Below are positions 318 to 947 of a stretch of DNA of 64,000 bases, piece by piece (position 1 is the first letter of the stretch; each line of letters begins with the position of its first letter). The notes beneath the pieces are model-generated. The model searched no databases. It was given only the letters and a program-made list of their open reading frames with translations, and had not been told where the DNA came from. A program made the position numbers and the translations under genes. The stretch is from Escherichia phage Pu-Krd-SF1: sequence record PQ249395, one strand, 5' to 3'.

Positions 318-503
318 ATGAAAATGTATCAAGAATTTATCGTTGAAGCAGATGCCAAAGGTTCTAAATTTAAAGTTAAAGCTTTCATTGGTGATGCGGA
401 AGACTTTGGCTCATTAAAACATAATGGGTATTCTTTCTTAGGTGGCGATGGTAAAGAAATCAAAACACCTATGCAAAACGTAGTGAAATTGCTTATGTTG
501 TAG
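318..503 (+). CDS. Hypothetical small protein (MKxYQEF N-terminal family)
   Basis: 61-aa ORF, AAGGA RBS 7 nt upstream; N-terminus MKMYQEFIVEA shared with ORFs at 645 and 46218. Confidence 0.5.
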   Translation: MKMYQEFIVEADAKGSKFKVKAFIGDAEDFGSLKHNGYSFLGGDGKEIKTPMQNVVKLLML

Positions 504-644
504 CAAGTCCTAAAGTAGATGTTGACGATATTGGATATGATTTTAACAACTTCGGAATTATTTCTGGCGGTAAAGCTTAAACGGTTTACGCTTAAGTATT
601 AATATGGTAATAATTACTCTATCAAAACAAACAAGGAAACAAAA

Positions 645-947
645 ATGAAAACATATCAAGAATTTATTACTGAAGCGCGAGTGAGTGCAGGTAAATTAGA
701 AGCCGCTATAAATAAAAAGGCCCATTCATTTCATGATTTGTCCGATAAAGACCGTAAGAAACTTGTAAGCCTTTATATTGACAAAGAGCGTATTCTCGCT
801 CTTCCTGGCGCTAATGAAGGTAAACAGGCCAAGCCTTTGAATGCTGTCGAAAAGAAAATTGATAACTTTGCTTCTAAATTCGGTATGTCTATGGATGACC
901 TTCAGCAAGCGGCTATCGAAGCAGCTAAAGTAATTAAAGGTAAATAA
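645..947 (+). CDS. Hypothetical protein (MKxYQEF N-terminal family)
   Basis: 100-aa ORF, AAGGAAAC RBS; N-terminus MKTYQEFITEA. Confidence 0.55.
   Translation: MKTYQEFITEARVSAGKLEAAINKKAHSFHDLSDKDRKKLVSLYIDKERILALPGANEGKQAKPLNAVEKKIDNFASKFGMSMDDLQQAAIEAAKVIKGK

Follow-up and report, generated by a model that had tools for sequence, protein, structure and literature searches.

Genes with a start like the capsid targeting sequence at two loci of a T4-like Escherichia phage, one of them gene 61.1

We analyzed a stretch of 64,000 nucleotides of Escherichia phage Pu-Krd-SF1 (sequence record PQ249395; the whole stretch is called the window below). Three open reading frames (ORFs) of the window, starting at 318, 645 and 46218, share their first codons. 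ORFs 318 and 645 are located in a variable locus of internal protein (IP) genes between denV and vs.8, while ORF 46218, the homologue of T4 gene 61.1, is located in the conserved 41-61 replication gene cluster. We describe the shared start, its likeness to the capsid targeting sequence (CTS) of T4 internal proteins, and the similarity of gp61.1 to a segment of the capsid protein gp23.

The window begins at the end of denV, covers the vs/regB region and extends beyond the primase gene; it corresponds approximately to the first ~64 kb of the record of Escherichia phage Pu-Krd-SF5, read on the reverse strand. In the parts that were compared, the first 3 kb and 45900-46700, it was 100% identical to phages Pu-Krd-SF5, SF6 and SF7, and its identity to many further Tequatrovirus genomes exceeded 95%. 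By this identity we assign the window to the genome of a Tequatrovirus, a T4-like phage. The features of the IP locus are the following (a slash marks the putative cleavage site):

282-289, + strand: TATAAATA, putative late-promoter consensus, ending 29 nt before the ATG of the first IP gene
318-580, + strand: frameshifted internal-protein gene, called ipY here (the ORF is read at 318-503, 61 aa; the original frame stops at 578-580)
318-347, + strand: CTS of the truncated IP gene, MKMYQEFIVE/A (motif match; Y4, F7, I8 and E10 retained)
633-667, + strand: ribosome-binding site (RBS) and the first 23 nt of the CTS, a 35-nt repeat that holds the junction of the ipIII-cassette deletion (overlap of two alignments to phage mogra)
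645-947, + strand: predicted ipII orthologue (internal protein II, 100 aa), 93/100 residues identical to T4 IPII
645-674, + strand: ipII CTS, MKTYQEFITE/A (motif match)
950-1005, + strand: hairpin just after ipII, 3' boundary of the IP cassette (minimum free energy -19.4 kcal/mol, z = -3.7)

We searched the window for the shared start at the level of DNA and protein. The 23-mer ATGAAAACATATCAAGAATTTAT was found at 645 with no mismatches, at 46218 with one and at 318 with two, and there were no further copies on either strand of the window when up to three mismatches were allowed. At this threshold 100 dinucleotide-preserving shuffles gave 0 matches, compared with the 3 observed. The protein pattern M[KR]x[YF]x[ED][FVL][ILVM]x[ED], searched in six frames, was present in the window at these three ORF starts only, and in 0 of 100 shuffles. 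The leaders read MKMYQEFIVE (ORF 318), MKTYQEFITE (ORF 645) and MKTYKEFIKE (ORF 46218). Past residue 10 the three products were mutually unrelated (BLASTP E>8). The flanks 5' of the three ATGs differ, the likeness begins at the start codon and it ends after approximately 10 codons. The original prediction, that the three ORFs have near-identical first codons and that their bodies diverge after the common start, was borne out in both parts by these scans.

Further copies were found outside the window. A scan of the rest of the SF5 genome revealed four more ORFs with a CTS, which gives seven such starts in the phage; one stands in the interval from e to denV, the ipI locus has two, and the fourth is a 188-aa 'hypothetical protein'. 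A thymidylate synthase match obtained in the same scan was rejected as a false positive. Therefore, of the family of three small genes that had been proposed, all three starts were confirmed, but ORF 318-503 is frameshifted and not intact, and the genome as a whole holds seven starts. The seven copies vary synonymously in their codons (ACA/ACT/ACG, ATT/ATC/TTA), and their Shine-Dalgarno sequences and 5' flanks all differ. Since the codons vary synonymously behind unrelated 5' flanks, selection appears to act on the peptide and not on an mRNA element.

The 188-aa ORF is located at 68120-68686 of PQ759885.1 on the - strand (L010 4221-4787) and starts MKTYAEFLTE/AA. It probably encodes an unannotated internal, injected protein of the phage. 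The UvsW.1 homologue (76 aa; PQ759885.1 113285-113515, + strand, also outside the window) starts MLLKFKQFLYE/AS, which fits the aromatic-x-x-F-L-x-E pattern of gp21 substrates and of the CTS; this may be coincidence.

The T4 internal proteins IPII and IPIII both begin with MKTYQEFIAE/A. All three ORFs of the window have the residues that define a CTS, namely an aromatic residue at position 4, Phe 7, Ile or Leu 8 and Glu 10. Homology of the body to internal proteins was present in ORF 645 and ORF 318 and absent in ORF 46218. The CTS of T4 IPI, IPII and IPIII was described by Mullaney and Black in 1996, as reviewed in PMC9026906 and PMC3012670. Residues 1-10 of IPIII suffice to bring IPIII or foreign proteins into the head, and mutagenesis assigned residues 4 and 7 to targeting and residues 8 and 10 to removal of the leader by the prohead protease gp21 (PMC9026906). 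The internal proteins of T-even phages are diverse, with the leader as their only common feature (PMC9026906, PMC3012670, PMC5694885). The GmrSD type IV restriction enzymes inhibited by Ip1, Ip2 and Ip3 are distinct (PMC12373910), and another CTS protein inhibits McrBC (bioRxiv 10.1101/2025.11.20.689424).

We consider it very probable that the shared start is the T4 internal proteins' CTS, and that this reading as a whole explains the observations best. The CTS family itself is already known, and the observation is in this respect textbook T4 biology. In the proposed mechanism, the N-terminal propeptide of approximately 10 residues would attach the protein to the scaffolding core while the prohead assembles. 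The gp21 protease would then remove it by a cut on the C-terminal side of Glu in an (I/L)-x-E motif. Whatever body stands behind the CTS would be packaged and later injected with the DNA, and because of this unrelated bodies can share it. The products of the IP locus resemble the T4 internal proteins in the leader MKTYQEFI(A/T/V)E followed by Ala, in their small, unrelated and dispensable bodies, and in the e-denV-vs location, which is a variable IP locus, as is the 57B/ipI region. They differ in ORF 318, which has T3M, A9V and the frameshift truncation, and in the order of genes, which is described below.

ORF 645-947 matched phrog_7857 (E=4.5e-55) and is annotated as 'internal virion protein'. 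On sequence grounds we identify it as ipII, an ordinary member of the CTS family. T4 Ip2 inhibits the GmrSD of ECOR21 (PMC12373910). Accepting the identification, the product of ipII would be injected and would inhibit a type IV restriction enzyme of the GmrSD kind.

ORF 318-503 matched phrog_2667, 'internal head protein' (E=2.6e-11), over its N-terminal 43 residues only, and the region aligned over at least 80% in 183 phage records. In phages HMD-9 and mogra the gene is intact, with 86 aa counted from the ATG of the CTS frame and the ending ...IISGGKA; the deposited coding sequence of intact ipY starts two codons further in, which gives 84 aa. Intact homologues carry the annotation internal head protein. 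Compared with the intact copies, the ORF of the window has 2 extra nucleotides at ~461-464 that shift the frame, and the C-terminal part lost by the shift can be read in frame +3 as far as the stop at 578-580. The ipY homologue of Gaprivervirus has the canonical leader MKTYQEFITE. Judged from these alignments, ORF 318-503 is a frameshift-truncated copy of an 86-aa internal protein. It may be non-functional in its truncated form, and this is the sole caveat against the CTS reading for the two IP genes.

The sequence TATAAATA, which we take to be the T4 late-promoter consensus, was found at five sites on the + strand of the window. The site at 282 stands 5' of ORFs 318 and 645, and there is none near 46218 (consensus matches only). 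A second one of the five lies inside ipII at 707-714, in frame with the coding sequence, and is probably a chance match. Scans for sigma-70 promoters and intrinsic terminators around both loci gave results at or below chance, and a MotA-box promoter pattern was not found upstream of 61.1.

We compared the order of the IP genes between phages. It is e-ipIII-ipII-denV-vs.8 in T4 and e-ipX-denV-ipY-ipIII-ipII-vs.8 in mogra, while the phage studied here has e-ipX-denV-ipY(frameshifted)-ipII-vs.8, with no ipIII. HMD-9 has a different internal protein after ipY, in the slot that holds ipIII in mogra, and other phages likewise carry different IP genes in one slot behind common upstream sequence. BLASTN aligned window 1-667 with mogra L009 1227-1890, reaching 23 nt into ipIII, and window 633-1605 with mogra L009 2478-3447, starting 10 nt before ipII. 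The 622-bp ipIII cassette of mogra is missing from the window, and the two alignments overlap in the 35-nt repeat at 633-667. Relative to T4, the ipII cassette corresponds to window 633-963, and its 3' end lies inside the stable hairpin at 950-1005. Sequence similar to this hairpin occurs upstream of T4 ipIII and ipII. The two T4 genes have a 47-nt exact repeat in common, and their starts are 697 bp apart. In experimental evolution of T4, microhomology-mediated deletions of 0.7-6 kb were observed, which often removed ipIII (PMC9391042); the 0.7-kb deletion may have been a CTS-to-CTS event.

Since the CTS and the ribosome-binding region are repeated as DNA, they can serve as homology arms for the loss, gain and swap of IP cassettes. 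The modular shuffling of T4-type phage genes by PeSL elements (PMC2839356, PMC4122927) and the T4 microhomology deletions (PMC9391042) are similar in that they have short conserved cassette borders and involve gain and loss among close relatives. Unlike in the PeSL system, the 5' arm here consists of an RBS and the coding sequence of a protein signal, not of a promoter/stem-loop cassette. The hairpin at the 3' boundary may be a terminator, a processing site or a shuffling motif of the PeSL type.

The homologue of vs.8 follows the IP cassette at 1062-1601 (179 aa). It is devoid of the first ~40 residues of T4 Vs.8 (219 aa), and a remnant of the N-terminal coding sequence of T4 Vs.8, GKYRNGQFMRHGMAQ, is readable at 970-1065 in another frame, beside the cassette boundary. 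Further downstream, at 1935-2297, lies the T4 vs.6 homologue (a GrcA/YfiD-like autonomous glycyl-radical cofactor), which the SF5 record calls 'hypothetical protein'.

The repeated start could also be mainly a DNA recombination module, a portable homology arm in which the peptide is secondary; we regard this as improbable. The deletion junction inside the repeat, the different internal proteins in one slot and the 47 nt identical between T4 ipIII and ipII agree with such a module. On the other side, the CTS peptide is sufficient for packaging in published work (PMC9026906), the 61.1 copy stands in a conserved, non-shuffled position, and conservation tracks the peptide and not the DNA, as the seven copies differ synonymously and have unrelated upstream sequences. 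As a side effect of the repeat, the recombination-prone module suggested earlier thus has support, with the junction relative to mogra lying inside the 35-nt RBS and CTS repeat.

We attach still less probability to a translation-initiation element, that is, favourable first codons or a downstream box of highly expressed small genes. In E. coli, initiation generally benefits from AAA as the second codon and from early codons rich in A. However, Shine-Dalgarno sequences, spacings and 5' flanks all differ between the copies, conservation reaches codon 10 and ends exactly at the protease site, and no other genes of the window have the shared start. When the RBS regions were compared, the upstream sequences differed and no common initiation region was seen. 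The proposed shared translation-initiation region is therefore unsupported, with conservation at the amino-acid level.

A chance likeness of AT-rich gene starts has AT-rich codon usage alone in its favour, and its probability is negligible, as it was refuted by the shuffles, which gave 0 matches in 100 against 3 and never contained the protein motif.

Having identified two members of the CTS family at the IP locus, we turn to the third start, at gene 61.1, where the features are the following:

46218-46382, + strand: homologue of gene 61.1 (54 aa), with 95% identity to T4 orf 61.1 over 42 aligned residues
46218-46247, + strand: CTS-like leader of gp61.1, MKTYKEFIKE/D (1/23 nt mismatch to the ipII start; Y4, F7, I8 and E10 present)
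46248-46331, + strand: gp23 N-fist-like core, DMVAGDSGGSPENISTGTTSGAVVNKGP (BLASTP to T4 gp23, family profile, hhalign and PDB search)
46344-46379, + strand: Lys-rich charged tail, KKKKEESKEKEE (a Lys/Arg run in nearly all family members; sequence not conserved)
46385-47413, + strand: gene 61 (DNA primase), downstream neighbour of 61.1 (annotation)

There are 2 nt between the stop of 61.1 at 46382 and the start of gene 61 at 46385. The order of 61.1 followed by primase was also found in RB69, KVP40 and KpV477 (a phage with the short form of the gene), where each locus was inspected. ORF 46218 matched phrog_1823 (unknown function) over its full length (E=2.4e-33), with 90 bits to the family profile, and tblastn matches to 61.1 were present in 1226 phage records. 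T4 61.1 is non-essential, like the IP genes (HIDEN-SEQ supplement). No Pfam or NCBIfam family was matched by the three products or by long-form 61.1 homologues (for gp61.1, no Pfam match at E<=1), and a search of the literature on gene 61.1, including its name variants and the CTS, found no relevant paper. Some deposited records (e.g. vB_Eco_F26, UPEC07, Mokit) call the 54-aa homologue 'major capsid protein' or 'major capsid domain-containing protein'; these names are misleading over-annotation, presumably derived from the N-fist similarity described below.

Searching 1.84 billion proteins with the 61.1 profile, we obtained 51 representatives. Approximately half of them were long forms (~130-165 aa), with an extra N-terminal domain of ~100 aa and the conserved core at the C-terminus; such forms were found in Mosigvirus, Aeh1, KVP40, Acinetobacter phages and RB43-like phages. 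Short (phrog_1823) and long (phrog_2086) members have in common the core MVAGDSGG..NIASG.TSG.V...GP followed by a Lys/Arg run, and the ORF of the window, besides its full-length match to phrog_1823, occupies the same place upstream of gene 61. The long forms differ in their N-terminal domain, which has no counterpart in this phage: its hidden Markov model (HMM) matched nothing among the six-frame ORFs of the phage, and hhalign detected no resemblance to the gp23 propeptide (probability 0.1%). For these reasons we ruled out that the N-terminal domain had been relocated to gene 61.2, and that 61.1 arose by duplication of gene 23's entire 5' end.

A [LIVMF]-x-E motif ends 0-2 residues before the core in 57/62 members that have the core, both long and short. 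A CTS-like N-terminus was present in 25/32 short forms, e.g. MKTFDEFVEA, MIKFKDFVES and MINFKKFVEN. In several members a second motif of the FKQFVE type directly follows the Lys tail and precedes a further domain. The metagenomic members P0035, P0051, P0056, P0046 and P0060 carry the core and Lys tail, then a second CTS-like motif (e.g. KKKVKRKMNEVSNFKQFVEGLE) and a further domain in one ORF, and by their sequence such double-motif relatives look like a polyprotein to be cut at two sites.

Only the Lys-richness of the tail is conserved. T6-type gp61.1 variants (P0002, P0004) have a different tail, KKKKRNLKKKKSKNVINTLD, which runs into the start of gene 61 and is consistent, by a check made by hand, with a 1-nt shorter A-run relative to window 46344-46382. 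In the RB69 reference (L013, NC_004928.1) a frameshift divides the long-form 61.1 at 599-1065 into ORF032c and '61.1'. In other Mosigvirus genomes the tblastn match of ~399 nt was unbroken, consistent with an intact gene of ~133 aa.

We then compared gp61.1 with gp23. Residues 2-38 of gp61.1 aligned with residues 57-93 of T4 gp23 (BLASTP, 41% identity, E=7e-8), with Glu10 placed on Glu65. We take the Glu65/Ala66 bond of gp23 to be its gp21 maturation cleavage site, which is consistent with the PDB chains of mature gp23* starting there. Among the six-frame ORFs of the phage, the 61.1-family HMM found gp61.1 and then gp23 (E=7e-13), with the next match at 0.088; this search compared 60 members with 1390 six-frame ORF segments from the window and from 63,900-168,847 of the SF5 record, all but the last ~25 nt. 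The alignment of the 61.1 family with the N-terminal part of gp23 by hhalign had a probability of 97.7% (E=1.8e-12, 42 columns), where the gp23 alignment was shallow, as the query of residues 1-140 gave 11 sequences, mostly fragments. In a search of the whole PDB the 61.1 profile matched T4 gp23 chains only, at precursor residues 58-93 and at residues 4-28 of mature gp23*. The search of 1.84 billion proteins returned no full-length capsid proteins at E<=0.001; the similarity is thus significant in the targeted searches (genome-wide, PDB-wide and profile-profile) and not at the size of that database. There was no match of gp61.1 to PF07068, and it covers gp23 residues ~57-101 only, so it has no full capsid-protein domain.

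The first 25 residues of gp23* make up the N-fist, which on expansion passes from the inner to the outer side of the shell, contacts four subunits and helps to form the Soc site; gp24 has no N-fist (PMC9958956). The common core of gp61.1 and gp23, (V/I)-x-GD-x-G...NI(A/S)xGxTSGAVxxxGP, extends across the cleavage site and the N-fist. Unlike gp23, gp61.1 has no HK97-fold body; it has a Lys-rich tail, its gene belongs to the replication cluster and it is non-essential. The N-fist segment of gp23 aligned in Tevenvirinae and in Acinetobacter, Klebsiella, Aeromonas and Vibrio phages, and no alignment was obtained in the capsid proteins of cyanophages or Ackermannviridae. The groups with an N-fist match the groups with 61.1, which is weak evidence, as it is confounded with phylogenetic distance. 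We rejected the GDSGG string of gp61.1 as a serine-protease active site, since the peptide is far too short and the gp23 equivalent is GDHGY. From the alignments we interpret the body of gp61.1 as paralogous to the part of gp23 that includes the gp21 cleavage site and the N-fist. In the searchable literature we found no description of gp61.1 as a miniature of the gp23 tip with a CTS-like leader, and its link to the CTS and the N-fist is a plausible new lead.

On these grounds gp61.1 could enter the prohead by means of its CTS-like leader and be recognised and cut by gp21 after Glu10. The cleavage would free an N-fist-like peptide of 44 residues with a charged tail, in or on the capsid. Mature gp61.1 would begin DMVAGDSGG(N/S)PENISTGTTSGAVVNK, and an N-terminus at Asp11 would be possible only through a cut after Glu10. 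That gp61.1 is packaged and cleaved seems to us possible, and we propose it tentatively as the most economical interpretation. It is rather unlikely, in our estimate, that gp61.1 is a hitherto unrecognised prohead protease substrate that provides a free N-fist copy for sites inaccessible to gp23 (e.g. gp24 vertices) or acts as a mimic; in the latter case the mature peptide would imitate the N-terminus of the capsid protein, and its partner would be the protease, the scaffold or a host sensor.

Several observations weigh against packaging and cleavage. Gene 61.1 sits in a cluster of early and middle replication genes, with its nearest upstream TATAAATA on the + strand ~40 kb off, and its adjacency to primase from T4 to KVP40 points towards replication rather than head assembly. 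Long forms carry the I/L-x-E motif internally, ~100 residues in, so it cannot serve there as an N-terminal targeting signal. The linker of RB69-type proteins, EIFKELPLFE/D, suggests that the T4 leader was partly inherited and is not an acquired CTS. The putative cut of gp61.1 is followed by Asp, versus Ala or Ser in the internal proteins, and the mature gp61.1 peptide would be acidic (pI 5.0), versus basic mature IPII (pI 9.7). Moreover, members of the 61.1 family are related by descent, and the motif counts are not independent.

As the main alternative, it is likewise possible that the leader of gp61.1 is no working CTS and that the ORF descends from or mimics the maturation-site region of gp23. 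The protein could then have a cytoplasmic role, e.g. with primase or helicase, or be an early mimic or decoy of the capsid-protein N-terminus for a host or phage factor. The synteny with gene 61, kept across distant genera, speaks for this alternative, as do the lack of a late-promoter consensus near 61.1, the internal motif of the long forms, the homology of the RB69 linker to the T4 leader, and the gp23 alignment, which spans the gp61.1 leader as well as the core. However, the best match of the leader is the leader of internal proteins (8/10 residues identical to T4 IPII/IPIII) and not gp23 (QAFGSFLTE), and it has all four experimentally important positions. The first 24 nt of 61.1 are identical to those of an ipIII-like gene of HMD-9. 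Very divergent short forms retain or re-create an N-terminal K-x-F-x-E-F-(V/I/L)-x-E (25/32), and I/L-x-E before the core in 57/62 is as expected of a gp21 substrate.

In summary, the window provides a clean natural example of the loss of an IP cassette by recombination within the CTS repeat, and the absence of the ipIII cassette fits the experiments in which T4 lost ipIII, giving up host range in return for genome space. As an aid to annotation, an ORF of a T4-like phage that starts MKT(Y/F)xEF(I/L)xE is a candidate for an injected anti-defence protein. Gene 61.1 is small, dispensable and widely conserved, and its product combines a CTS-like leader, a cleavage motif of the gp21 type and a copy of the gp23 N-fist. 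If gp61.1 is not processed and associated with the capsid, it would be a conserved capsid-protein mimic expressed with replication genes, which also needs an explanation; if it is, it would be an added component of one of the best-studied virus capsids.

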